Below, one piece after another: positions 7,478 to 22,843 of a DNA stretch of 64,000 bases. Under the pieces are notes generated by a model, which saw only the letters and a list, made by a program, of their open reading frames with translations, was not told the DNA's origin and searched no databases. How positions within the stretch are numbered: the first letter of the stretch is position 1; every line of letters starts with the position of its first letter. A program made the translations under genes and the position numbers. This stretch comes from Bacteroidia bacterium (lineage in GTDB: Bacteria > Bacteroidota > Bacteroidia > J057): positions 1,550 to 65,549 of the forward strand of contig JAWKNL010000032.1 of NCBI GenBank assembly GCA_041391725.1, in the 5' to 3' direction.

Positions 7478-10400
7478 ATGCGACAAAAACTACCCATATG
7501 GATTTCGATCGCCTTCGGCATTGCCCTGATCGTGCTCGCCACGCTGTACTCTACTGCACCACGGGAACGCACCATTTCAGCTCCCTTTCTGGATGAAAAT
7601 TCGCGGTGGGCGGATTCTGTGCTGCGAAAAATGACCATTTACGAAAAAATCGGCCAACTGCTGATGGTCGTTGCCGAGCCCGATACCACAGAAAGAGAAT
7701 TCCCCCTGACACACCTCCTCACCGAATTTCATGTCGGCGGTGTCGCTTTCAGAGATTATGATGCCACACAGCAATGGCAACGCTCGCATATATACCAGCA
7801 GGTTTCCTCGCGCCCGCTTCTTGTGGGAATGTACAGTTCACCCGCACAGGATGATCTGGTGGCTATGCCTGCCGATATTTCCCTGGCTGCCATTGACAAT
7901 GATTCGCTGATATCACGCATCGGAAAAAACCTCGCGGTTCAGTCCAATAAGATGGGCGTCCATCTGTATTTTACCCCTTTCATCGCCAAAGATCAGCGAC
8001 CCGAAAACCGAAGGCAAATCATGAGAAAGGTACTCGCGGTGTCGGAAGCGCTGCAACAACAGTGGGTGATGTCCTGTCCGGGGTATGCAGAAGTATATTT
8101 CCCGCTGGAAACCGATTCTTTGCTCATCGACAGCCTGCTTTCGCCTTATGATACCCTTGCAGACAGAGGTGTATCCGGGTTTCTGATAGGAGGGGAGGAA
8201 CTGGATAAAGTAAAAATCAATTCTGCCAAAGAGGAACTGGTGCGCTCCTATCTTTCTGCCCATACGACTTTCAGAGGATTGCTGATAGCCGAAGCTACAG
8301 GGCCAGATCGCACCTCGGTTGAGGATCGCGCCAAAAAAGCCATGAAAGCAGGGGCAGACATGTTGGTTGCGGCCAAAAAAGATATTCCACTGGTGTATCA
8401 GGTACTGGTAGAAATGGCAGGAAGGGAAAAGCTGACCGAAGAAATCCTGAATGAAAAAGTTCACCGCATCCTGCTCGCCAAGTCGTGGGCACACGCGCCT
8501 GCTTCTTATGCCGAGGCAGACTTCCGCAAAGAACTGCCTTTAAATCCGGAGCTCAACCGGGTGTTTAACCGACAGGTAGCCGAAGCGTCTATTACCCTTC
8601 TGCGCGACGACCATCAGCTTATTCCCTTCAGACAACTCCGGGAAAAAAAATTCCACCTGCTGACTATCGGGGATGAGACCATAGACATGCTCAATCAGCT
8701 CCGCTGGTATGCGCCTTTCAGCCGCTCAAGGCTTACCCGTAAAAACGACGGTGCCCTTCCGCGCCTTGACGTCAGGTTTTTCTCAGGTTACAATCCTGTG
8801 ATTGTCGCTTTCCATCGGGAAGCTCCCGATCCTTCCCGTGATTCTCTGTTTTTGCAGACGCTCAATCAACTGATGGCCCGCACACCGGTAGTCATTGTGA
8901 ACCTGGGCGATCCGCATCATCTCGACCAGATACCACAGGCAGAGACGATGGTGCAGGTTTACGGCGATACCCATCAGAATGAGGCGCTTGCCGCGCAGCT
9001 TCTGTTTGGCGGTATCTCTTCAGGAGGACGAATACCGTGGCATATAAGCGATACCCTTGCTTACCGGCAGGGACTTTCACGGGCGGTTACAAGATTGACC
9101 TATATCCAGCCAGAAGCTGCCGGGATGGACAGCAGGATACTTTCCCGAATTGATTCGATCGTATATGAAGGGATAGGCACTTTTGCTATGCCCGGCTGTC
9201 AGGTATTTGTCGCCAAAAGCGGGAAAGTGGTATATCACAAATCCTTTGGCCATCCGACCTACGCCTCTCCGGTCTGGGTCAACCCGACCGATATGTATGA
9301 CATCGCCTCTGTCACCAAAGTTGCCGCCACCACTGTGGCTGCCATGTATCTGGTTGACAAAAAACGCATCAGTCCGGCTGACCCGCTGGGAAGATTTTTT
9401 AAAGATCAGATGATCATTACTGACTCCGTATATCGGCGCGACACCCTTTTTATTGTTGATTCGCTATATGTGGCCGAATCTCCCTCGGAACCTTTTGAAG
9501 AAACAGATTCAACAGAAACCGGAAAATCGCCCTTTATCCTTGTGGCACAACGGCAGCCCGATCCTTCCACCCGGGTTGATACATTCCGCAAAGGCGATTC
9601 GCTGATGGTGATACGCTCCTATCTCCGGGGAAAAATGCGGGTTAAGTCGCCTGTTTTTTCCCTCACCCTTGAAGAGCTGATGACCCACCATTCGGGGCTT
9701 CCGGCAGGGCTTCCTATTTTGCCTTATCTGCGTTACCGCAATAAGTTTGTAGGGCGTTTTGACCGGTATTTCAAACCACGGGAAGACAGTCTGTACAATA
9801 TTGAAGTGGCCAACGGATTTTATCTGCGGCATGATTACAGAGATTCGCTGTGGAAGGCCGCCAAGTCTATGTCCATCAACCCCAAAAAGACTTACGAATA
9901 CAGCGACGCCAATATGATTCTGGTGCAGATGGCTATCGATTCGCTTACAGAGGAATCTATCGGCAGTTTTCTCGCAAGGGAAATCTACGAACCGCTGGGT
10001 ATGCAAAACGCCCGGTTTAATCCGCGGAAAACCGTTGATCCGGAGCGGCTTATTCCCACCGAATACGACAACAACTGGCGGGGGCAGTTGCTCAAGGGGA
10101 ATGTACACGATCCCACCGCCGCCCTCCTCGGCGGGGAGGCAGGCAACGCAGGCTTGTTTACCAATGCCAACGACCTGGGTATTTTGTTTCAGATGATTCT
10201 GAACGGCGGTTCTTACGGCGGAGAAACCTATATGAGTCCGCAGACCGTATCCATGTTTACCAACGCTGTAAAAGGCAACCGCGGGCTGGGTTTTGACAAA
10301 CCCCCGCTTTACGGAGAATATATCATCGGAAGCAGGGCGTCTCAGGCCTCCTTTGGGCATACCGGCTTTACCGGTACATGCGTATGGGTTGACCCGGAAT

Positions 10401-10540
10401 CTGAACTGGTATATATATTCCTTTCCAACCGCGTACATCCCAAAAGCAATAACTGGAAACTCAACACGCTGCAAATCCGGCAGCGCATCCACGACGTGAT
10501 TTACGAGGCGATGGATGCAGGTGTGCAATCTTCTCTTTAG
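7478..10540 (+). CDS. fusion protein: GH3-like N-terminal domain plus beta-lactamase-related serine hydrolase
   Basis: N-terminal TM/signal anchor. NagZ/GH3-like N-terminal region. C-terminal half has SxxK (ASVTKV), YSDAN and HTG (GHTGFTGT) motifs of the class C/PBP4*-like hydrolases. Confidence 0.7.
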   Translation: MRQKLPIWISIAFGIALIVLATLYSTAPRERTISAPFLDENSRWADSVLRKMTIYEKIGQLLMVVAEPDTTEREFPLTHLLTEFHVGGVAFRDYDATQQWQRSHIYQQVSSRPLLVGMYSSPAQDDLVAMPADISLAAIDNDSLISRIGKNLAVQSNKMGVHLYFTPFIAKDQRPENRRQIMRKVLAVSEALQQQWVMSCPGYAEVYFPLETDSLLIDSLLSPYDTLADRGVSGFLIGGEELDKVKINSAKEELVRSYLSAHTTFRGLLIAEATGPDRTSVEDRAKKAMKAGADMLVAAKKDIPLVYQVLVEMAGREKLTEEILNEKVHRILLAKSWAHAPASYAEADFRKELPLNPELNRVFNRQVAEASITLLRDDHQLIPFRQLREKKFHLLTIGDETIDMLNQLRWYAPFSRSRLTRKNDGALPRLDVRFFSGYNPVIVAFHREAPDPSRDSLFLQTLNQLMARTPVVIVNLGDPHHLDQIPQAETMVQVYGDTHQNEALAAQLLFGGISSGGRIPWHISDTLAYRQGLSRAVTRLTYIQPEAAGMDSRILSRIDSIVYEGIGTFAMPGCQVFVAKSGKVVYHKSFGHPTYASPVWVNPTDMYDIASVTKVAATTVAAMYLVDKKRISPADPLGRFFKDQMIITDSVYRRDTLFIVDSLYVAESPSEPFEETDSTETGKSPFILVAQRQPDPSTRVDTFRKGDSLMVIRSYLRGKMRVKSPVFSLTLEELMTHHSGLPAGLPILPYLRYRNKFVGRFDRYFKPREDSLYNIEVANGFYLRHDYRDSLWKAAKSMSINPKKTYEYSDANMILVQMAIDSLTEESIGSFLAREIYEPLGMQNARFNPRKTVDPERLIPTEYDNNWRGQLLKGNVHDPTAALLGGEAGNAGLFTNANDLGILFQMILNGGSYGGETYMSPQTVSMFTNAVKGNRGLGFDKPPLYGEYIIGSRASQASFGHTGFTGTCVWVDPESELVYIFLSNRVHPKSNNWKLNTLQIRQRIHDVIYEAMDAGVQSSL

Positions 10541-12119: not shown

Positions 12120-15100
12120 TTAGCCGAGTCCGGGATAGTCAATCATGCGCTTCATCAATTCAATCATGCCTATTTTATACGCTTCGTCAGTTACCCACTT
12201 TTTGTATTCTTCGACATTGGCTTTTCTTTTTGCTAAAAACACTTCGTCCATGATTTTTTTCAAAGCTATCTCGCTGTTCTGCATGTCCGAATTATTTTTC
12301 ACTTTTGATTCATAATCCTTATGCTGGGTTACATTTCTGAAAAAAGAGATTGTCCTGATTCGCGACTCTTCAGGGTTTCATCCCGAGCCTGAGTAAACCT
12401 TTCATTAAATGTCCTGATAATTTCATCCAACGGATCGACTTCTTCCTGCCGCCATGCGCACCTCTGGGGTTGGGATTTTGGGGCTTCTAATTCTGTTTTT
12501 GAATCATCTAACGCAATCGAATGGTTGAGTTTGGTGCGTTCCAATCCGTAAGTGGATAGATCCACCGATTCCAATAATTCGTCAATCAATTCATCTTCTT
12601 TCGTTTTAACAACCAGTTTTGGAATAAGGAATTTTAAAAACCAGAATAGTTTTTCCCCATTCTATTTTTTCATATTCATGATAGATGCCATTTGACCATA
12701 GATTTTTACAAATTGTTTGGCCTTAATCTTAAAGTCTGCTTTTTCATCATCTTCCAGATTTAATCATGGTTGAATCTGTTGGCTGCAACATCAATAAGAG
12801 GACTCAATAATTGCGCATCTACTCCTTCAAAGTACTTTTCTACGAAGGTTTCTACTTCCGCCCATTCGTAAACGCCCACGTCATCCAGTATTCCTTTCAG
12901 TTCATGCAATACATTGATGTCTGTTTCCCGGCTAAGGGTGGTTGATGTATAGAATGGGTCAAAGGAAGCTTATGTCTTCTACTTGATTAAAGAAGTCCAA
13001 AACGAACAGGTCTTCTGTTTTTTACCCAGTTTATCGGTTGCGCGGTTCAACCGGCTCAATGCCTGCACCGCCAATACGCCTTGCAGTTTTTTGTCCACAT
13101 ACATGGTGCAAAGTTTGGGCTGGTCAAACCCGGTCAGAGTTTGTTTGCCACCACCAATAAACGGTAATCGTCTGAATCAAATTTGTCTCTGGTGTCTTTT
13201 TCTGCGAAAAAACCGTTTAAATCTCCTTCGGTGTATTCTACGCCATCGACCGCCTTTGTCCTGAAAATGCAATGGCGATTTTAAACGGATTACCTTTATC
13301 CCTTAAAATGCTTTTGATCGCCAAATAGTAGCGAATGGCCGACTCGATGTTTTGTGTAACCACCATGCCTTTGGCTAAGCCTTTGAGTTTTTGGTAAGTT
13401 GTACACATTGCGGATAAAATGCTCCATCATGATCTCAGCTTTGGTGGCAATGGTGCGTTTATCCCGCCTTGACATAAGCCCGCAATTTTTTTCTGCGCTT
13501 TTCTGTGTCAAAAAGTGGATTGTCTTCTATGGACTTTTCTATTTCATAATAGCTTTTTTTGTAGGTGGTGTAGTTGGCCAGTACATCCAGAATAAAACCT
13601 TCTTCAATGGCCTGCTTCATGGAGTAGAGATGGAAAGGTTTGAAAGAACCGTCTTCCTTGTTTAATGCCAAAACGCCCAGGGTAGCATTTTGGGGGTGGC
13701 TGCAAATGCTAGGTAGCGAGGCATTGCCCTTCATTTTTCGGGCTTTCATGGCTTTCAGATTTTGTTTGTGCATCTTCTTCCTCTTCTTCATTTGCGTCAG
13801 GCCCATGAATTTATTCATATTGTCTGAAGCGATCCGCTTGTGAATCGTGGGTTTTCAATTTGTCAATAATTACGTAAATCGCTTATCACTTAAATCGGCA
13901 ATGCCGTCTACAATAAAAGGAAACTTTTGAATGGTGGTAATGATGATCTTCTTTTGCTGCTCCAGGCTGTCTTTTTAATTCTTTGAGGAAAAAGCCGGGG
14001 CGACAGCTATTCTTGACTTCTGAAATTCTCATCAGCTTCTCGCGTAGTTGTTTGTCCAGCAATCTTCTATCTGTTACCACAATTACCGAATCAAACAACG
14101 GATGCTGAATGCCTTTGGAAACCGGGAAGATCTTCGCTTTCGGGATAGGTTTCTATGAGTTGATAGGCCCAGGTAATAGAGTTGGATTTGCCCGAACCGG
14201 CAGAGTGCTGAATCAAATAGGTATGTCCTACTCCTTTTTGCGAAGCATGGCTCAATATTTTACGCACCACATCTATTTGCATCGGGAAAAATAAGGTGCG
14301 TTTGTTTAAGACATCTGTGGGTTTGCTGTCAAACCGCACAAAGTGCTGGATGATTAATGTGGCTTCATGGCTGAATACTTCTCTCCAAAGATAGTCTGTC
14401 TTATGACCGTGCAAGTAGCGGATTGCCTTGCTCTGTTGTGTCCCTTGCTGAATGGCAGGAAGTAGCGAGTTAGTCTCACAGTTTTGCACGAGAGTATAAT
14501 TCTTCATCTGGTATCTACGTGAAAATGCACAATTACAGCGCCCAAAATTACAATGGTTGCTGTATATTCCGGTCTTCTTTGGTATTGTTTTATGCCATGT
14601 GCCCTGGCAGTTTGCCCTGTCCATGGGTTTTTGAGTTCGAGTTGCGACGATGGCCAAACCATTGACAAATACCACCATGTCGATGCTTTCGCGGTATTTT
14701 CCTGCTGTAGCGAACCTGACGGGTGACGCTGAACTCGTTTTTCTCAAAATTGTCTTTTACCGTCTGGCTGCTGCTGGCCATGGGCAATTGGTAGAGCATG
14801 GTAAAATGGGCATCTTCGACTTCCAGTCCTTTGCGGAGGACACGGAGCACACCGTATTTTTTGACCATGCGGTCATAACGTTCCAGAATTTTGAGTTTCC
14901 AGTCGGATGATCGCTTGAGTTTTTCGAGTTCTTCTGCTTGAGTCGTTTCCAGAAAATGCCAGAAGCGCGTTTCGTCTATGGCGTATTTGGGATTGAAGTC
15001 ATTGGGATTGCCGATGTAATACCCGTTGCCCGAGCGGTAAGGTGCGACAGGCTCACCCATCGCCAGGGTTTCCGGTGTGCGGTTTAGTTCTTCCAGGCAA

Positions 15101-15162
15101 GTGCCGGTTAAGGCTTTTTCTATGGCGGCTTCGAGCGCCCGTTCATTGGTTTGAGAGGGCAT
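12120..15162 (-). pseudogene. hsdR: type I restriction enzyme R subunit, full length but broken by many frameshifts/stops
   Basis: N-terminus MPSQTNERALEAAIEKALTG. Helicase motif I QHSAGSGKSNSITW. FDSVIVVTDRRLLDKQL. C-terminal ...FVLDFFNQVEDI..., DPLDEIIRTFNERF. These pieces lie in at least 8 different frame segments over ~3.04 kb (ORFs 14590-15162, 14091-14747, 13886-14098, 13459-13818, 13296-13511, 12329-12589, 12120-12302, plus unlisted short pieces). Confidence 0.85.
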
Positions 15163-15173
15163 GGATGTATCTG

Positions 15174-16130
15174 TTAGTTTTTCATATGTTTACCAAAATA
15201 CCCAATATGTACTTTCTTCTCTGACGGATCGGGATAAAAGTGGAGCCGGAAGGCTCCGCTGAAGTTCTTGATATGAAAGCCGAAAAACTGCTTTTCTGAT
15301 CCAACTGTAAAGGTTCGCAAATTGCTCAACTTAGGATTGTTTTTCACAGTGTCCGACTCATCAGATATCGTCAATTTCGTTTCAGCCTTGAGCGATGCGA
15401 GCGAAAAATCTTGCCCTTTTTCGCAGTAGTCATTCAAGGCTGTTAATGCGCCATATAGCTGATGATAGACAGTTGTTGAGACAGACATATGCTTAAGTTG
15501 AGATTTTGTTTGTCCGCAGAATACAAGATGAGGAAATTCTGCTTCGCGATTGTCCCAAAGCTCAGATCCTTTTCTCAGGCTGTCCCGCCGCTCTTCGGTT
15601 ATTCGATCTTTAAATACTTGCCACTGAGCAGCAGAGACACAATGGTGGACATCTAAAGCCGCTTCCTGATCTCCATCTGATGTTAATTCCCTATGCCATA
15701 GAGAGATGATCGCCGGTTGCCAGCGGGTGTGGGAGTCAAAACTGAGGGCCAGCTGGCCCAGCAGACTTGCTGCGCCCAATGAGGGTACCGATACGCTCCG
15801 ATCGTCAAAGAGAACAAATTCAGACAATGAAAATCGCTCCGCAATGACGATCTCCTCCTCCGGAATTTGAGGAACAGCAGCTTTCGTGATGAAGGATTTT
15901 ACCTTTCTTTTGTACTCCAACTCCTGCTTCTCAAACCAGGTCCGAAAGGGATATTCTGGAGCGAGGGGTATTTCATACCAGCTTTGGCCAAAACTACCGG
16001 AAAGTAATATGGCTTTGAAATGGCTGTCAAATGCGCTATTGACAATGGCCAGGCATGCAGGAAATTTCTGATCCGCCTCCTGGCGATCGTGATACGGGAT
16101 AGAAGCCTCATTCAGAATCAAATATTCCAT
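15174..16130 (-). CDS. orphan 318-aa protein, third gene of the hsdS-hsdR passenger cassette
   Basis: Intact ORF. ATG lies 8 nt after the ATPase stop, and its stop lies 11 nt before the hsdR ATG. No signal peptide, TM segment or catalytic motif that I recognise. Confidence 0.7.
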   Translation of the reverse strand: MEYLILNEASIPYHDRQEADQKFPACLAIVNSAFDSHFKAILLSGSFGQSWYEIPLAPEYPFRTWFEKQELEYKRKVKSFITKAAVPQIPEEEIVIAERFSLSEFVLFDDRSVSVPSLGAASLLGQLALSFDSHTRWQPAIISLWHRELTSDGDQEAALDVHHCVSAAQWQVFKDRITEERRDSLRKGSELWDNREAEFPHLVFCGQTKSQLKHMSVSTTVYHQLYGALTALNDYCEKGQDFSLASLKAETKLTISDESDTVKNNPKLSNLRTFTVGSEKQFFGFHIKNFSGAFRLHFYPDPSEKKVHIGYFGKHMKN

Positions 16131-16138
16131 AGCAGATG

Positions 16139-17257
16139 TTATTCCAGAAGCAGATCCAATTGTTTATCCCATTCGTCAAAAAAACCATCAGGCCACTCAT
16201 CTGCCCGGCCGGTAGCATCTATATGTATAGGAATAACACGGCTCGAATGATCGGGAGATTCAGCTTCTCGCTGGAAGTAATAGACTTTTGTATCCTCGTG
16301 TGAAAGCACGCCCTGCTTGATAGCCACCCTGATACCGTTCAGGATATGATCGCTGTGCGACTCCAACATAATTTGAGTGCCAGAGGCGGCTGCCAGTGCA
16401 CAAAGACGAGCGATCCTGGCCTGGCCTGCCGGATGCAGGTGCGACTCTGGGTTTTCGATGATCAATAACCCGCCGGGAGGCATCATCAACAATGCAGTGA
16501 TGATGGGCAGTACATAGGTGAGACCAAACCCCACATTGGTCGGTTTAAAACTTTCGGTATATCCGTTCTGTAACTCAAAGCTATAGGACAGGCTGGCAAC
16601 CTCCAGTTTTTCATGATAGGTCGCATTTACTTTTACTCCCGGAGATATTTCTGATAACCAGGCACTTACATTGTCCAGGAGAGTATCAGATTTAGCATCG
16701 GGATGCTGCAAATCCGGATTTGGCAGCGGACGGTTCTGGTGCCGGGCCAGATAATGCACGGTGTATTCGCCCTCTTTGCCCAGGGACACCAAATTATCTA
16801 CATGGTAAGTCGAGGTTTTATACTGCGTTTGCGGATTAATCCGGTTAGCGCCCAGGTAGTGGGTGTTGTCTGAAAACATAAAAGCCGCACCTAAGTCAAA
16901 GTCCTCGCTCCTTTCCCGCTTCGCTAAGGGCAATACATCCTTTTCAGCCGCCTGGTGAAAAGAAACTTCGAGTGTATGTGTATAATCCCACTCCAGCTCA
17001 AATGTTAATAACGCTTCGGCCGGGGCACCTATCGAAAAAACATCCTTGCCAAGGCCCAGGCTGAGCAAGTCATCGTCTTTGAGAAACAATCCCCGCTCAA
17101 AATCGCCGTTTCGCAGCGATTGCTGAAGCAACAACAAGGGCTGAATCGCTGAAGATTTACCTACGGCATTAATACCTGTGAACAGGTTGAGACGACCCAG
17201 TGAAAAGTCACCTTCAAGGATAGACTTAAAGTTCCTGATTTTCAGATTAGTAAGCAT
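16139..17257 (-). CDS. SMC/ABC-like AAA ATPase with DUF3696-type C-terminus
   Basis: NLKIRNFKSI...LFTGINAVGKSS (Walker A), LLIIENPESHLHP (Walker B/D-loop), ESHSDHILNG, C-terminal WPDGFFDEW. Start overlaps the upstream gene by 11 nt. Confidence 0.8.
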   Translation of the reverse strand: MLTNLKIRNFKSILEGDFSLGRLNLFTGINAVGKSSAIQPLLLLQQSLRNGDFERGLFLKDDDLLSLGLGKDVFSIGAPAEALLTFELEWDYTHTLEVSFHQAAEKDVLPLAKRERSEDFDLGAAFMFSDNTHYLGANRINPQTQYKTSTYHVDNLVSLGKEGEYTVHYLARHQNRPLPNPDLQHPDAKSDTLLDNVSAWLSEISPGVKVNATYHEKLEVASLSYSFELQNGYTESFKPTNVGFGLTYVLPIITALLMMPPGGLLIIENPESHLHPAGQARIARLCALAAASGTQIMLESHSDHILNGIRVAIKQGVLSHEDTKVYYFQREAESPDHSSRVIPIHIDATGRADEWPDGFFDEWDKQLDLLLE

Positions 17258-18356
17258 GGCCTGTATATTGGGTGATCAGTTTTTGTAACTCCCGGTGGCG
17301 CAACACTACGCTTTCCACCCGGTTGGTATTGGCCGTAATCGCAGCCTCAAAGTCTGGCTTACGCATCATGCCCAGGTAGCCAGAGATAAAGGCTTCTTTT
17401 TGGGACAGCAGTCGCTCCATCCCGGCATCTGTCAGATGGGCAAGATTTACCGCAGTCGTTTCAAACAGCGAGCGGTTGATCACGGGCTTGCCTTCCGGAT
17501 GGAGCAGCGCCTTGCTAAACATGTTCTGACCGAATAGCTGGTCGGCACGAACCAAGCTCCGGTGACAGGCTGCTGCCCATGCTGAACGCTCGGCATCGGT
17601 CGCTACCTCGTTGAGGTGCTCCATTTCCTCATCCAGAAACATACGCAGCGAAGGCTGATACTCGGCAGGTCCTCGCCGGTAGAAGGCAATAAACCTCAGC
17701 AACAATTCCCGGTCCAGCATACGCTTAGGCGATACCCCCAGATACTGTCTGAACCACGGCTCTTCGGCCACCTGATTCAAAAACCGGGTGGCAGGCCCCT
17801 GGTTCAGGGCATGCCGGATCTCCTGGGCGGTCATCTTGAGGCCCGCAGTATTGATACGATAAAACAGGTTCGTAAGCACTTTTTTAGGGGTGCCCTTCCT
17901 GATTTTAAAGAGCGTTACCTGGGTCCCTTCGATGCGGCGCTGCAAGGTGCGGTCCAGGCCGTCGTATTTTTTCCCTTCCAGCTCCTTCAAAAACTCCATG
18001 TGGCTCAGTTTCAGGTTTTTGTCCACCATAAACCGTTTAAAAGTAGAGAGCCGCTGTAAGCCATCCACCACCACCCATTTGTCGTCATTGGCTACGTCCA
18101 TGTAAAAAGCGGGAAGAGGAAGCTTGATCAGGATAGACTCGATAAGCTGGCTCATGCGCGTATTGTCCCACAGATTGGTGCTGCGCTGAAACTCAGGAAA
18201 GAGGTCTATTTCACCATGTCGGATCCTGTCCACCAGCGTAGCAACAGTGGCAGGCTCGACCGTAATGTCCACCTGCTTAGGGTCAAACGGAACCTGGATG
18301 GTAAACTCTCCTTCCTGATCGTCCTCTATGTCAAGGTATAGTTCGTTTTCTTTCAT
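17247..18356 (-). CDS. DUF262 (GmrSD N-terminal / ParB-Srx fold) protein without a DUF1524/HNH half
   Basis: IDLFPEFQR, VVVDGLQRLSTF (DGQQR motif), FYRINTAGLKMTAQEIRHAL. The helical C-terminal ~170 aa has no His-Me/HNH motif. Confidence 0.8.
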   Translation of the reverse strand: MKENELYLDIEDDQEGEFTIQVPFDPKQVDITVEPATVATLVDRIRHGEIDLFPEFQRSTNLWDNTRMSQLIESILIKLPLPAFYMDVANDDKWVVVDGLQRLSTFKRFMVDKNLKLSHMEFLKELEGKKYDGLDRTLQRRIEGTQVTLFKIRKGTPKKVLTNLFYRINTAGLKMTAQEIRHALNQGPATRFLNQVAEEPWFRQYLGVSPKRMLDRELLLRFIAFYRRGPAEYQPSLRMFLDEEMEHLNEVATDAERSAWAAACHRSLVRADQLFGQNMFSKALLHPEGKPVINRSLFETTAVNLAHLTDAGMERLLSQKEAFISGYLGMMRKPDFEAAITANTNRVESVVLRHRELQKLITQYTGHAY

Positions 18357-18391: not shown

Positions 18392-19765
18392 TCAAGATTG
18401 GGAAGTTTCATCCGTCACTTTTATTTTCCCCGTCACCGCACTATCGATCAGCGTGGCTTTGTATTCCTTGAGTTTTTCGATCTGGGTCTGCTGGAGGGTG
18501 ATGGCCTGGTCGATTTTGGCGGATTGGGTTTCGATGTGGGCGACGATTCCTAATTGCTCATTCTGAGGCGGAAGTACTGTTTGCAATTGTTTGAATTCAT
18601 CCCAATAAAGCCTTTTTCTAAAGTCTGTAATTCCCTTTGAATTTCTATTCATTTGCTGAATAAAAGAGTCAGTTCTATACTGATATTCAAAATATGATGC
18701 CACGATCTTTTTGTTAGGTTTTGCCACTACATAGGCAGGACTTACCATACCCTCAACACGAACCGCTCCAATTGCTCCTTGCCAGGCTCTCATCATATTA
18801 AAAACAATATCATTTATCGCTACATACTTGTAATTACTCTTGTCTTCAATCTTAATTAGCCCACGAATATTATCTTCATCAGATAATTCCTCAGAAGAAA
18901 CGGCTGAGTGAATAGAAACAGATAACAGTGGTAAATCCTCTCTGCCTGGTTCTTTTCGTTCTTTGAATAATATTCTGTTGGCTACCACCTCCCATCCCAC
19001 CGGAATCTGCCCAATCCATTCCACGCCTGAGTCTTTGAGTTTTTCTTTGGGAGTCATTGACCATTGACCATTCACCATTGACCATTTCCCCGTTACGGCA
19101 TTTTGGATGAGGATCTGTTTGCGTTCTTTGAGCAGGGCGATGAGTTTTTCTTTTTGGGTGATGGCCTGGTCTATTTTGGCGGTTTTGTCGTCGAGGAAGT
19201 TGGCGATGGCGGTTTGCTCTTCGGCATTTGGAAACCAAAAAGTAACGGTCTTTAATAATGTTTGGGTAATACTAAATACTTTAACCCCTTTAACTCGCGA
19301 TCTTATTTGATTGCGGAAACTTTGAGAAGTAATTACATAAGCTGCAAACCTTTCATTAACATGTATTTTTAATCTTGCTATTACAGTATGATAACCGGCA
19401 AATGTGCTTAGGTCACTATTCAAATAAGTGAAGTTCCCAGACCCTTCAATATCTTCAGATGTATCTGCGAAAACAAAATCTCCTTTACTAAGTAGTGAGT
19501 TCGAATCACTAAGCAAATATTCCTCGCTTACACATTTCAACTCATGAATTTCAGGATTGACTTCAAACCCAAATTTTGAATGTATTTCCCCATAATTGAC
19601 ACAATAAACGCCTTCCTCTTGTAGGTTTTCCTTCGTTATCGTTAAGCCCTTGCTGAAAGAGAAAATGTTTCTTAGGCGACTAACCTCCCAATGCTCCGGA
19701 ATCTCCCCGAGCCATTGCACGCCCGAATCTTTATATCGATCATATTTTTTAAACTGCATCATCAT
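18392..19765 (-). CDS. hsdS: type I R-M specificity subunit, two TRDs, intact
   Basis: Two half-repeats, each starting KDSGV(Q/E)W(L/I)G.IP..WEV. Conserved helical spacers (FLDDKTAKIDQAITQKEKLIALLKERKQ.. and KIDQAITLQQTQIEKLKEYK..). Start taken at the ATGATGATG cluster. Confidence 0.85.
   Translation of the reverse strand: MMMQFKKYDRYKDSGVQWLGEIPEHWEVSRLRNIFSFSKGLTITKENLQEEGVYCVNYGEIHSKFGFEVNPEIHELKCVSEEYLLSDSNSLLSKGDFVFADTSEDIEGSGNFTYLNSDLSTFAGYHTVIARLKIHVNERFAAYVITSQSFRNQIRSRVKGVKVFSITQTLLKTVTFWFPNAEEQTAIANFLDDKTAKIDQAITQKEKLIALLKERKQILIQNAVTGKWSMVNGQWSMTPKEKLKDSGVEWIGQIPVGWEVVANRILFKERKEPGREDLPLLSVSIHSAVSSEELSDEDNIRGLIKIEDKSNYKYVAINDIVFNMMRAWQGAIGAVRVEGMVSPAYVVAKPNKKIVASYFEYQYRTDSFIQQMNRNSKGITDFRKRLYWDEFKQLQTVLPPQNEQLGIVAHIETQSAKIDQAITLQQTQIEKLKEYKATLIDSAVTGKIKVTDETSQS
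19055..19089. repeat. heptanucleotide tandem repeat inside hsdS (CATTGAC x2, CATTCAC, CATTGAC, CATTTCC)
   Basis: Read directly. Encodes the GKWSMVNGQWSM linker between the central helix and TRD2. Confidence 0.9.
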
Positions 19766-19798
19766 TAGCAATTGACCATTAACAATTAACCATTAAAA
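19764..19798. repeat. heptanucleotide repeat (CATTAGC AATTGAC CATTAAC AATTAAC CATTAAA) overlapping the hsdS start
   Basis: Read directly. Same 7-nt register and family as 19055-19089 and the start of the 39173 array. Confidence 0.8.
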
Positions 19799-19858
19799 AA
19801 TCCATTCCACGCCGGAGTCTTGGTAAGCAGGATAGCTTGGGTAGTTATGCGTCGTCAT
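19793..19858 (-). pseudogene. 21-codon relic of an hsdS N-terminus (MTTHNYPSYPAYQDSGVEWIF*)
   Basis: 19799-19823 matches 19013-19037 (start of TRD2) at 23 of 25 nt. The reading frame is cut off by the heptamer array. Its ATG is embedded in the RayT 3' end. Confidence 0.55.
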
Positions 19859-20507
19859 GGTCGGGATTGTTTGGGTGATAGCGGTCGTCTCCCCAGCGTT
19901 GGGGATTTTGCCGGATATAGAATTCGACGCGGTCATAAGAGGCCTGGTCGCGGATGATGTGGTCATAAAACCGTTCCTGCCAGTTAAAATCAGGGGTGGT
20001 TTTCCTGATTTCAAAGGTACAGCGCCCCTTGTACCAGCGCATCACGCGGGATAGGTTGTCGTACAGCATGGGGTTGTGGTGGCCGGTGATGCCGCCGGGA
20101 TCACGGACGGTTGTATGATCCGTAGAGACGCGATTAATCGCGTCTCTACCAGGCGGATCATCAGGATGATCGATGATCACGATGCCGTGGATGTGATTGG
20201 GCATCACGACCCATTCCCCCAGACGGGCATAGGGAAATCGTTCGGGGATTTCCTGCCAGTGCCGTGCCGCGATTTCGCCTGGTTCGGACAATTGGACGCG
20301 GAATTGGGTTGGGTCGGTTGGTTCCGTTGGTAGAGACGCGATTAATCGCGTCTCTACAGGGGGATCGGTGATTGGTACGACGTCCGCGAAATGACACCGG
20401 TGGTCTATGACGCAAATGGTGACAAAATAGGCGGCGTTCCAGCCGTAGTCCCACCAAGGGGCACGGGCGGAGGGGATTCGGTATTTGCCGTTGAATTTTT
20501 CTGCCAT
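19845..20507 (-). CDS. REP-associated tyrosine transposase-like (Y1/HUH, IS200-like fold)
   Basis: YFVTICV, HUH motif MPNHIHGIV, NLSRVMRWYKGRCTFEIRK, WQERFYDHIIRD, catalytic-Tyr region FYIRQNPQRW. ATG lies 2 nt after the hsdM stop. Confidence 0.8.
   Translation of the reverse strand: MAEKFNGKYRIPSARAPWWDYGWNAAYFVTICVIDHRCHFADVVPITDPPVETRLIASLPTEPTDPTQFRVQLSEPGEIAARHWQEIPERFPYARLGEWVVMPNHIHGIVIIDHPDDPPGRDAINRVSTDHTTVRDPGGITGHHNPMLYDNLSRVMRWYKGRCTFEIRKTTPDFNWQERFYDHIIRDQASYDRVEFYIRQNPQRWGDDRYHPNNPDHDDA
20122..20149. repeat. 28-bp perfect palindrome GTAGAGACGCGATTAATCGCGTCTCTAC (copy 1)
   Basis: Read directly. Lies in the RayT ORF and is translated as RDAINRVST. Confidence 0.95.
20330..20357. 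repeat. 28-bp perfect palindrome GTAGAGACGCGATTAATCGCGTCTCTAC (copy 2)
   Basis: Identical to copy 1. Lies in the RayT ORF but is read in another frame as VETRLIASL. Both copies are preceded (coding sense) by GATCC(G/C)CCT. Confidence 0.95.
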
Positions 20508-20509
20508 GT

Positions 20510-22843
20510 CTATTTCCCTAAAATGTCCCTGATCAGTCCATCGCTTTCTTTGTCCAGCGCCAGGATTTCGGCGCTGACTTCCTCTATACTCCGCAGGGGC
20601 TTATGCTGGTAGAAGTATTTATTGAAGCTGATTTCATAACCGATTTTGGTTTTGTCGAGGTCGATCCAGGCTTCGGGCACGTGGGGTTTTACCTCGCGCA
20701 GGAAATAATCGTAGATGCTTTCTTCCAGCGGCACATTTTCGCTGTCGCGGAGGTCGGTTTGGTTTTCGTAAATGATGTATTCGTCCCTGTTTCCGCTGGG
20801 GTAGTATCCAAAGTCAGGCAATTGCGCCACCGTACAATCGAGGTGAAACAGGAGTTGGTCAAGTTTCTCACCACTGAGCTTTTGGGTTTTTTTGATCACC
20901 TTTTCAGCACTTTCATCATACCAGCTCACAGCTTGCAGGATGGCATTTTTTTCACTGGCAGAAAGTTTGGATTTACTCGCTTTGAGGTTCATCATCCACC
21001 CATTTGGCAAACACATTAAAATCGCTGTATTCCTGGTTGCCAATGGTTTCCATCAGTTTTGTGGCAGTGTTTAATATTTCTTTTTGTTTTTTCCATGTAG
21101 CAGCAGACGTGAGGGTTTTGCGCTTTTTGGCGTTCAGATCGATGTCGTTTTTCTCGCACCATTCCGGGAGTGCTTTTTCAATAGACTTCAGGTCTGAATA
21201 CACCTTTTCGCCAAAGGTTTCCAGGCCCATTGCATCGGTTCTTTGAGTGTTTTATCGAATCGAAGATCCGCAATACGTTCGGTAAACTGCGCTTTCAGTC
21301 TCGCCGGGCGGTCAATGGTTACTTTATAATATAAATCACTGTTGTTAAATACTATGGCGGCCAGGCCGTCTTCGCCTTGCCGCTCAATTGTTTCAAAATT
21401 CAGATACGCATCCTGGATTTCTTTGATGTGCTGTGGGCTCAATTCACAGTTTTTGTTACCCAGGTTTTTGCGCAGTTTGGCAAAACGTTGGGAAGCATCA
21501 ATGAGCAATACTTTGCCTTTACGCTTAGTTTCTTTATTGTTATGCAATAGCCAGATATACGTAGTAATACCTGTATTATAAAACAGGTTGTTGGGGAGTT
21601 GGATGATGCAGTCCAGCCAATCATTTTCAATGATGTATCTTCTGATATTGCTTTCCACCACCGGCATCACCCGTAAACAGACTGGAACCATTGTGTACCA
21701 GGCAATACGCGAACCCAGTGGGCTTTGGTGGAGGGGCTTCATTTTATTGACCATCTCCATCAGGATGAGCAATTGCCCGTCAGACGAACGAGGGGTAGCA
21801 TCCGCTTCTTCTGCATTATCCCAATAATCTTTTAGGGTAACCACAAAGCAGGGTCAATGATGCTGTTGCCGTCTTTGATGTATTTTACTTCGCTGCTCCA
21901 GGACTTGCCATAGGGTGGATTGGAGAGCATGAAGTCGAAATTGTGGCCGGAAAACTCATCGGTGGAAAGGGTAGAACCCACGCGGATATTTTCAGGGTTG
22001 TTGCCCTTAATCATCATATCCGATTTGCAAATGGCGTAGGTTTCGTCATTGATTTCCTTGCCGTATAAATACACATCACCCTTAGCACGGATTTCGCCTT
22101 CTTCGTCTTTGATGAAATTCTGCGATTCAGTCAGCATGCCACCCGAACCACAAGCTAGGTCGTAGATGGTCATCACCGGCGGCAATTGATCTTTGATCGG
22201 GTCAAACACAATATGGGTCATCAGATCAATTACTTCACGGGGCGTAAAGTGTTCTCCGCTTCTTCGTTGTTTTCTTCGTTGAATTTTCGGATAAGCTCTT
22301 CAAAGACATACCCCATTCCGAGATTGGAAAGAAGGGGTTGTTTTCTTCCGTCAGGGTCTTCTTTTCAAAAGGAGTGAGGTTGATGTGAGGAGAAGTGAAT
22401 TTTTCAAGGACATCGAGAAGCACATCTTTTGAAGCCATGTGCCGGATCTGACTTTTGAGCTTAAATTTCTCAATAATTTCCTTCACGTTTTGGCTAAAGC
22501 CATTGAGATATTCTTCAAAGTTGGCTTGCAAAATTTGCTGGCTGTTGGTAGCAGTTTCACATAGTCTTTGCAAAGTCCATTCGCTGGTATTGTAAAATAC
22601 ATAGCCACTTGCATCGCGCAGGCCCGCTTCGTCACATTCAGCAAGGCCGACTTCGTCTCGTTGGAAAGCGAATTCTTCCAAAACGGCTTCTTTGGTAGGT
22701 TCGAGCAAAGCATCTAATCTTCTCAAGACTACCATGGGCAGAATAACGTCTCTGTATTTCCCTCTTACATATACGTCTCTAAGACAATCGTCCGCTATGG
22801 ACCAGATAAAGGATATCAGTCTATTGTGTACAGATTGGTTCAT
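20510..22843 (-). pseudogene. hsdM: type I R-M DNA methyltransferase subunit, broken by multiple frameshifts
   Basis: HsdM_N start MNQSVHNRLISFIWSIADDCLRDVY..VILPMVVLRRLD. GEHFTPREVIDLMTHIV. DLACGSGGML (motif I). FDFMLSNPPYG (motif IV). NNLFYNTGITTYIWLL. C-terminal GYEISFNKYFY. These are spread over at least 6 frame segments (ORFs 22235-22843, 21832-22221, 21188-21844, 20973-21230, 20510-21043). Confidence 0.85.

Follow-up and report, generated by a model that had tools for sequence, protein, structure and literature searches.

NsnC of a Menshen cassette from a Bacteroidia bacterium and its predicted RelE-like C-terminal domain

The nsnABC cassette and its surroundings

The gene examined here lies on the minus strand of a 64,000-nucleotide stretch of DNA from a Bacteroidia bacterium (the window). 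The features of the locus are collected in Table 1. As the first-pass annotation had reported, the ORF is intact: it runs from ATG to TAA and encodes 318 amino acids, the last of which (FGFHIKNFSGAFRLHFYPDPSEKKVHIGYFGKHMKN) match the tail quoted in that annotation exactly when the DNA is translated. The earlier reading of a protein without a transmembrane segment or a signal peptide also stands. The maximal Kyte-Doolittle mean over 19 residues was 1.39 and the N-terminus was acidic, and on these grounds a membrane or secreted protein was rejected.

Table 1. Positions of the genes, domains and conserved codons discussed in the text, numbered from the first nucleotide of the window.
Feature	Coordinates	Strand	Size or residues	Description and basis
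nsnC	15174..16130	minus	318 aa	Menshen third component; stop codon 15174-15176; ORF, PADLOC NsnC PDLC03879
NsnC N-terminal domain	15546..16130	minus	residues 1-195	alpha/beta, Rossmann-like; AlphaFold2 (AF2)
NsnC C-terminal domain	15177..15545	minus	residues 196-318	RelE/YafQ-like BECR-fold predicted RNase (PB-BECR1-like)
E258-S259...R272 motif	15315..15359	minus	residues 258-272	ISDESDxVKNNPKLxxxR; conservation in 166 representatives
H286 codon	15273..15275	minus	H286	first His of H-R-H; K288 two residues on; 100% of 166
R295 codon	15246..15248	minus	R295	Arg of H-R-H; 100% of 166
H315 codon	15186..15188	minus	H315	last His of H-R-H, in GYFGKH; 99% of 166
nsnB	16139..17257	minus	372 aa	ABC-type ATPase with C-terminal DUF3696; Pfam, PADLOC
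nsnA	17247..18356	minus	369 aa	ParB/DUF262; 11-nt overlap with nsnB; Pfam, PADLOC
hsdS	18392..19771	minus		intact specificity subunit directly upstream of nsnA; Pfam Methylase_S 5.3e-16
RayT-like (IS200/Y1) transposase gene	19845-20507			intact, between hsdM and hsdS
hsdM	20510-22843	minus		further upstream; at least 3 lesions in the assembly sequence
hsdR remnants	12120..15162	minus		directly downstream of nsnC; at least 7 frame changes; tblastn

Is this protein truly an orphan that cannot be placed in a family, as had been stated? Searches of Pfam and NCBIfam with the full-length sequence, with each of its halves (E <= 10) and with 50 homologues returned nothing meaningful (a match to MgrB at E = 0.11 was noise), and all of the named homologues are annotated as "hypothetical protein". 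The PADLOC model for NsnC (PDLC03879), however, matched residues 4-317 over model positions 5-304 of 305 with an E-value of 6.4e-58, and the two upstream genes matched NsnA (5.2e-116) and NsnB (4.4e-115), each match being near full length. From these sequence models, we assign the protein to NsnC, the third protein of the named Menshen (NsnA-NsnB-NsnC) anti-phage system, the effector architecture of which was published in 2025 (PMC12065111). The claim of an orphan must therefore be withdrawn; that status is a gap in Pfam and NCBI annotation, not in the literature. Because the 369-aa NsnA carries no extra N-terminal sensor domain, the cassette is classed as Type I Menshen.

The two partner proteins were examined for domains that might execute the defense. 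In Pfam, NsnA matched GmrSD_N (DUF262) alone (6.7e-20), with no DUF1524/HNH domain, and its translation contains FQRSTNLW and DGLQRL motifs. NsnB matched AAA_21 (4.6e-23), AAA_15 (2.9e-17) and DUF3696 (8.5e-17), and its translation displays the Walker A sequence GINAVGKSS and a LLIIENPESHLHP motif. Pfam detected no nuclease domain in either protein, just as had been noted earlier, and since both lack one, NsnC is left as the only candidate effector of the cassette, also in keeping with the earlier view.

The spacing of the genes is close. Eight nucleotides separate the nsnB stop codon from the nsnC ATG, and 11 nucleotides separate the nsnC stop codon from the first hsdR ATG; on account of these spacings, the genes are tightly packed in the manner of an operon. 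At related loci, the spacing between the genes is retained within a range from an overlap of about 1 nt to a gap of 8 nt. The proposed translational coupling of nsnC to the ATPase gene is thus only partly upheld: it is plausible at a distance of 8 nt, but there is no overlap with nsnB.

A sequence search returned 55 NsnC homologues. Compared with its closest relative, L001, nsnC has a dN/dS of 0.23 (0.13 for both nsnA and nsnB), and it is a real gene under purifying selection. NsnC diverges faster than its partners: identities to L001 are 94% for NsnA, 94% for NsnB and 86% for NsnC, and those to the more distant L016 are 41%, 45% and 27%, respectively. NsnC is present in three of 41 related genomes, a patchy distribution that is typical of defense cargo.

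The cassette lies between hsdS and hsdR in a Type I restriction-modification (R-M) operon. In the assembly, hsdR and hsdM are full-length pseudogenes, and the genes between them (hsdS, the RayT-like gene and nsnABC) are intact. When the intact 1017-aa HsdR of L001 was used as a tblastn query, the remnants were covered over their full length in alternating frames. Long genes nearby are intact, e.g. a 1020-aa ORF at 7478-10540. L001, which comes from the same genus, has the order hsdM-RAYT-hsdS-nsnABC-hsdR; there, hsdR is intact and hsdM stays open up to the edge of the locus. The RayT-like gene of L001 (1641-2375; 62% amino-acid identity) has the same position, and for this reason the transposase gene in the window is probably an old resident of the operon rather than a recent insertion.

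These circumstances allowed us to ask whether the cassette is maintained together with the R-M enzyme. The lesion density in hsdM and hsdR combined is ~2 per kb, and a rough Poisson estimate puts the chance of a lesion-free, 3.2-kb nsnABC under uniform decay at ~0.002. Because nsnABC is free of lesions amid this decay, the maintenance of Menshen appears not to depend on the R-M enzyme, and the decayed genes around the intact cassette furnish a small piece of evidence that Menshen also works independently of that enzyme. Alternatively, the position of the cassette could itself be functional, with HsdS kept as a DNA-specificity partner, e.g. for NsnA. The adjacency of hsdS and nsnA recurs in L001, L005 and L015. 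Against this idea, only three of the ~20 NsnC-seeded loci (see below) that have nsnA contain a match to the window's hsdS upstream, and a rough Poisson estimate of ~0.06 makes the intactness of the 1.4-kb hsdS a marginal surprise at most. We consider a functional partnership with HsdS improbable.

Predicted structure and conserved residues of NsnC

The AF2 model of full-length NsnC, calculated from a 50-sequence alignment, had a pLDDT of 93.5 and a pTM of 0.79 and comprises two domains. Residues 1-195 form alternating beta-strands and alpha-helices and end in a long helix (167-193). Residues 196-318 form helices followed by an antiparallel sheet; modeled alone, this C-terminal domain had a pLDDT of 92.1 and a pTM of 0.85.

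Foldseek was used to compare the models with the PDB. For the 123-aa C-terminal domain, nearly all of the top 40 matches were RelE, YoeB, HigB, HigB2, HP0892, PfiT or ParE-type toxins. The best were E. coli RelE (2kc8 and 4fxe; probability 0.97, target-normalized TM 0.55-0.65), Pyrococcus RelE (1wmi, 0.93) and ribosome-bound RelE (4v7k, 0.90). The E-values were weak (0.02-0.5), but the match list was coherent. With the full-length model, only E. coli HigB and RelE exceeded a probability of 0.5; Esa1 and DnaK, which topped that list, were dismissed as junk (TM 0.12, rmsd 17). The BFVD viral library contained no structural match.

Sequence comparisons did not reveal this relationship. PDB sequence and profile searches with NsnC found nothing relevant, a match to Bre2 at E = 0.05 being a low-complexity chance match. 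When the C-domain profile was aligned by hhalign with E. coli RelE (sequence from MG1655), with YafQ and with an alignment of 28 ParE/RelE sequences taken from genomes of this phylum, the probabilities were 0.1-2%, which is not significant. The best gapless register places NsnC H286, K288, R295, K314 and H315 on RelE K52, K54, R61, K80 and R81; of the latter, K52, K54, R61 and R81 have a catalytic role. This register is likewise not significant, as 467 of 2000 shuffles reach its score. The C-terminal domain is therefore RelE-like by its fold and its pattern of residues, and it is not a sequence-level member of the RelE/ParE (PF05016) or YafQ families.

We examined conservation at two depths. 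In the 50-sequence alignment, E258, S259, R272, H286, R295, Y311, G313 and H315 are invariant in the C-terminal domain, and K288, N289, F290 and K314 are each conserved in more than 90% of the sequences. A profile of the domain (E <= 1e-3, 1.84 billion proteins) retrieved 2218 cluster representatives. Among the 150 matches listed, the domain extends to the C-terminus in nearly every case, and the lengths of the host proteins mostly fall between 260 and 330 aa. In 63 of 166 full-length representatives, the N-terminal domain lacks BLAST similarity to that of NsnC; all 33 representatives of 240-279 aa fall in this group. Even so diverse a set retains R272 (100%), E258 and G313 (99% each) and S259 (98%), together with the residues of the C-terminal His/Lys/Tyr run for which conservation mapping had been proposed: H286 (100%), H315 (99%), Y311 (97%) and K288 (87%). 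R295 is present in every one of the 166. H286 is invariant in alignments A1 and A2 as well. The residues H286, R295 and H315 match the "H-R-H triad", the defining feature of PB-BECR1, which is the most common effector domain of Menshen (PMC12065111).

These results bear on two statements about the C-terminus. The first-pass annotation had seen a small, beta-rich, toxin-like tail there (R.HF......I.IGY.GKH), and it saw well: in the model, this segment is predicted to form the beta-sheet core of a RelE/YafQ-like (BECR) fold. It had also found none of the nuclease or protease motifs that it looked for. Taken literally, this is borne out, for the sole Rx4-6H match is REAEFPH (residues 195-201), the His of which is Asn in most homologues; a HEPN reading was rejected on that basis. 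The implied absence of any catalytic signature, on the other hand, does not hold, as the tail forms the core of a predicted RNase domain with a RelE fold and invariant His, Arg and His residues.

The E258-S259...R272 motif is the family's most conserved stretch and apparently has no counterpart in the shorter RelE. In the model, its residues fall within the short helical and strand elements that lie between the long helix and the core sheet. The motif may help to complete the active site, or it may act as a contact for regulation.

Among the 50 homologues, no Asp or Glu is invariant in the alpha/beta N-terminal domain; the invariant residues are W51, W65 and S130. No PIN protein appeared in the top 50 full-length Foldseek matches. 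A published proposal holds that the N-terminal domain of NsnC is an inactive PIN-like (inPIN) domain that docks on the DUF3696 domains of NsnB (PMC12065111).

Does the C-terminal domain cleave, or does it only bind? The ParE members of the RelE/ParE fold are not nucleases, and ParE-type entries occur in our Foldseek list. NsnC could accordingly be a non-catalytic adaptor or sensor whose RelE/ParE-like domain only binds RNA, the ribosome or gyrase, with the defense executed by the neighboring R-M enzyme or by NsnA/NsnB. The lack of a sequence-level match to the catalytic RelE or YafQ families and the embedding of nsnABC in an R-M operon are compatible with such a role. We nonetheless regard it as unlikely. 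The invariance of His, Arg and His on the core sheet in 166 diverse proteins is the pattern of a catalytic BECR RNase, and hsdR and hsdM are broken here beside an intact nsnABC. Further, in other Menshen systems, nuclease domains of the Toprim, PLD or other BECR types occupy the equivalent position, and an R-M neighbor is lacking at most Menshen loci (PMC12065111). The protein had been proposed to be either the effector or a specificity/sensor subunit; the evidence favors the former.

If NsnC is a nuclease, its target could in principle be DNA. NsnA carries the N-terminal DUF262 of GmrSD, which recognizes modified DNA in GmrSD and SspE, and the cassette resides in a restriction locus; Menshen might then be a GmrSD/Type IV restriction system whose functions are divided among three proteins, with NsnC as its DNA-directed nuclease. 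NsnC has no HNH, PD-(D/E)xK, Toprim or PLD signature, however, and its structural matches are toxins of the RelE superfamily, most of which are mRNA interferases. Those BECR-fold proteins that are catalytic act as RNases (PMC12065111). A DNA-directed NsnC thus seems to us very improbable, and an RNase the preferred reading.

Distribution of the cassette and of the effector module

The conservation of the three-gene arrangement was examined in two samples. A pattern scan seeded with NsnC, limited to one genome per species, yielded 24 loci. Most of those with enough flanking sequence and a full-length match keep the order NsnA-NsnB-NsnC; they derive from Bacteroidota, Desulfobacterales, Gammaproteobacteria and three Methanosarcinaceae archaea. 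L015, which has lost nsnB, is an exception. The second sample, which is free of the bias of NsnC seeding, was seeded with NsnB in 401 genomes of the phylum. Each of the 10 NsnA-NsnB pairs found there is followed immediately, on the same strand, by a gene for a protein of 266-347 aa; in no case was a third gene absent from a DUF262+DUF3696 pair, an absence that the first-pass annotation had put forward as evidence against its reading. Four of these 10 third genes encode the C-terminal domain studied here, and the remaining ones end differently. Such varied tails reproduce the "polymorphic NsnC" of Li et al. (PMC12065111).

This synteny also bears on whether nsnC might be the toxin gene of an unrelated toxin-antitoxin pair that came to lie beside a DUF262/ATPase pair by chance. 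The RelE-like fold would suit such a toxin. Yet the flanking gaps of 8 and 11 nt, with nsnB and hsdR as the neighbors, leave no room for a small antitoxin gene, and the three-gene order is kept across phyla and across the boundary between bacteria and archaea. Moreover, the toxin domain shares its polypeptide with a 195-aa N-terminal domain, and the protein fits the PADLOC NsnC model over its full length. We give this explanation hardly any credence and retain the assignment to Menshen.

Several other arrangements were observed. Complete nsnABC cassettes occur in MAGs of Methanosarcinaceae/ANME-type archaea (L010, L011 and L013), whose NsnA and NsnB share 41-47% identity with those of the window; these sequences point to a probable transfer between bacteria and archaea. 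Two loci hold decayed copies of Menshen. At L009 (6001-6618), NsnC is cut to 205 aa and has no effector domain; at L015 (4810-6435), nsnB has been lost along with the first half of nsnC, and the last 130 codons of nsnC directly follow nsnA. In one genus of the same phylum (L072-L080), tandem genes encode DUF3696-type ATPases of ~670-690 aa and ~515-530 aa, after which comes a protein of 336-364 aa ending in ...HLHYW......FPHDN.DIPE; the stretches examined, which end just upstream of the first ATPase gene, contain no NsnA-like ORF.

Proteins of 491-626 aa in Actinobacteria (L021, 4456-6234; L023, 4747-6222; L024, 3292-5172) end in an NsnC-like module (ES..R..R.F...H.[RK]I...PR.HFYDD...KV..GY.GKHLP). 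Their N-terminal parts are unrelated, appear by eye to be coiled coils and have no Pfam match. Two DndB-like (ParB-related) genes flank the one in L023. The predicted RNase module is thus seemingly also used outside NsnABC, again beside ParB-like proteins.

Proposed function and comparison with known systems

In our judgment, the ORF very probably encodes NsnC, the effector of a Type I Menshen system, with an N-terminal alpha/beta domain and a C-terminal RelE/YafQ-like BECR domain that is predicted to be an RNase. Beyond the gene identity, synteny, fold and residue conservation that were observed, we infer RNase activity, its substrate, regulation by NsnB and sensing by NsnA, along the lines of the published sensing/ATPase/effector model of Menshen (PMC12065111). 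NsnA (ParB/DUF262 plus a DNA-binding domain) would sense phage DNA. A tetramer of NsnB would hold NsnC by its N-terminal domain between two DUF3696 domains until a change in nucleotide state (ATP binding or hydrolysis) activated or released it. The BECR domain would then cleave RNA, either mRNA or tRNA, without the need for a metal; the two His residues may serve as general acid and base, with Arg/Lys stabilizing the transition state. Cleavage of RNA would stop translation and thereby abort the infection. In the literature, we found no published experiment that demonstrates RNase activity for any NsnC; a preprint on Menshen reports only the formation of higher-order complexes.

What does this locus contribute? 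Menshen, the logic of its three parts and the architecture of this effector had already been published, and our finding is correct but ordinary. Its practical use lies in annotation: the "hypothetical protein" can be relabeled as NsnC with a predicted RelE-fold RNase domain. The gain for biology is small; RNase activity, the RNA substrate and control by NsnA/NsnB are questions for the entire family and not for this locus.

The closest known system is the Menshen archetype from Solibacillus silvestris StLB046 (Millman et al. 2022); the domains of NsnC were analyzed by Li, Tan, Basu, Corbett and Zhang (NAR 2025, PMC12065111). Menshen was named in 2022, and protection against phage (T2, T4, T6 and Fado) has been shown only for the S. 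silvestris system, according to the citation in PMC12065111. The published NsnC architecture is an N-terminal inPIN domain without the D-E-D-D catalytic residues, followed by a C-terminal BECR RNase with H-R-H (PMC12065111). The window's cassette resembles the archetype in that its third gene follows a DUF262 NsnA and an ABC-ATPase/DUF3696 NsnB, in its two-domain NsnC and, going by the paper's description (PMC12065111), in its RelE/YafQ-like BECR C-terminal domain with H-R-H. It differs in coming from Bacteroidota; its closest public relative is 86% identical. According to the same paper, 27.9% of Menshen operons adjoin BREX, Type I/III R-M or methylase genes (PMC12065111). The present cassette, in a Type I R-M locus, conforms to this habit, but the adjoining hsdR and hsdM are pseudogenes.

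With RelE, YafQ, HigB and YoeB, the C-terminal domain shares its predicted fold (Foldseek probability up to 0.97, TM 0.45-0.65), and its basic and His residues lie on the same strands. It nevertheless lacks significant sequence or profile similarity to these toxins. RelE-type toxins stand alone at ~90 aa, whereas the NsnC domain is fused behind a 195-aa domain; nsnC has no antitoxin gene, and control is presumably exerted by the NsnB ATPase. Compared with RelE itself, NsnC has the extra, highly conserved E258-S259...R272 insert and has no counterpart of the C-terminal Tyr87.

Similarities also exist to systems that pair an ATPase with a nuclease. NsnB weakly matches the PADLOC models for AriA of PARIS (AriA/AriB), GajA of Gabija and Old-type proteins. 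In the published AF3 model of Menshen, an ATPase dimer clamps one effector, as in PARIS and Septu (PMC12065111). The effectors themselves are dissimilar: that of Menshen is a predicted BECR RNase, and those of PARIS, Septu (PtuA/PtuB) and Gabija are Toprim or HNH nucleases. Menshen also adds a third, ParB-like protein that is predicted to be a sensor.

Finally, the PrrC/RloC anticodon nucleases are associated with Type I R-M loci, and Menshen at this locus resembles them in that an ATPase-linked RNase module, a predicted one in its case, is situated within such an operon. PrrC consists of one polypeptide that is kept latent by EcoprrI, while Menshen is made up of three proteins. Here, nsnABC is intact though hsdR and hsdM are broken, and because of this, a dependence of nsnABC on the R-M enzyme is not supported. 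On a modest reading, the locus may be a natural experiment in which Menshen is seen not to be a PrrC-like guard that fires upon loss of the R-M enzyme.
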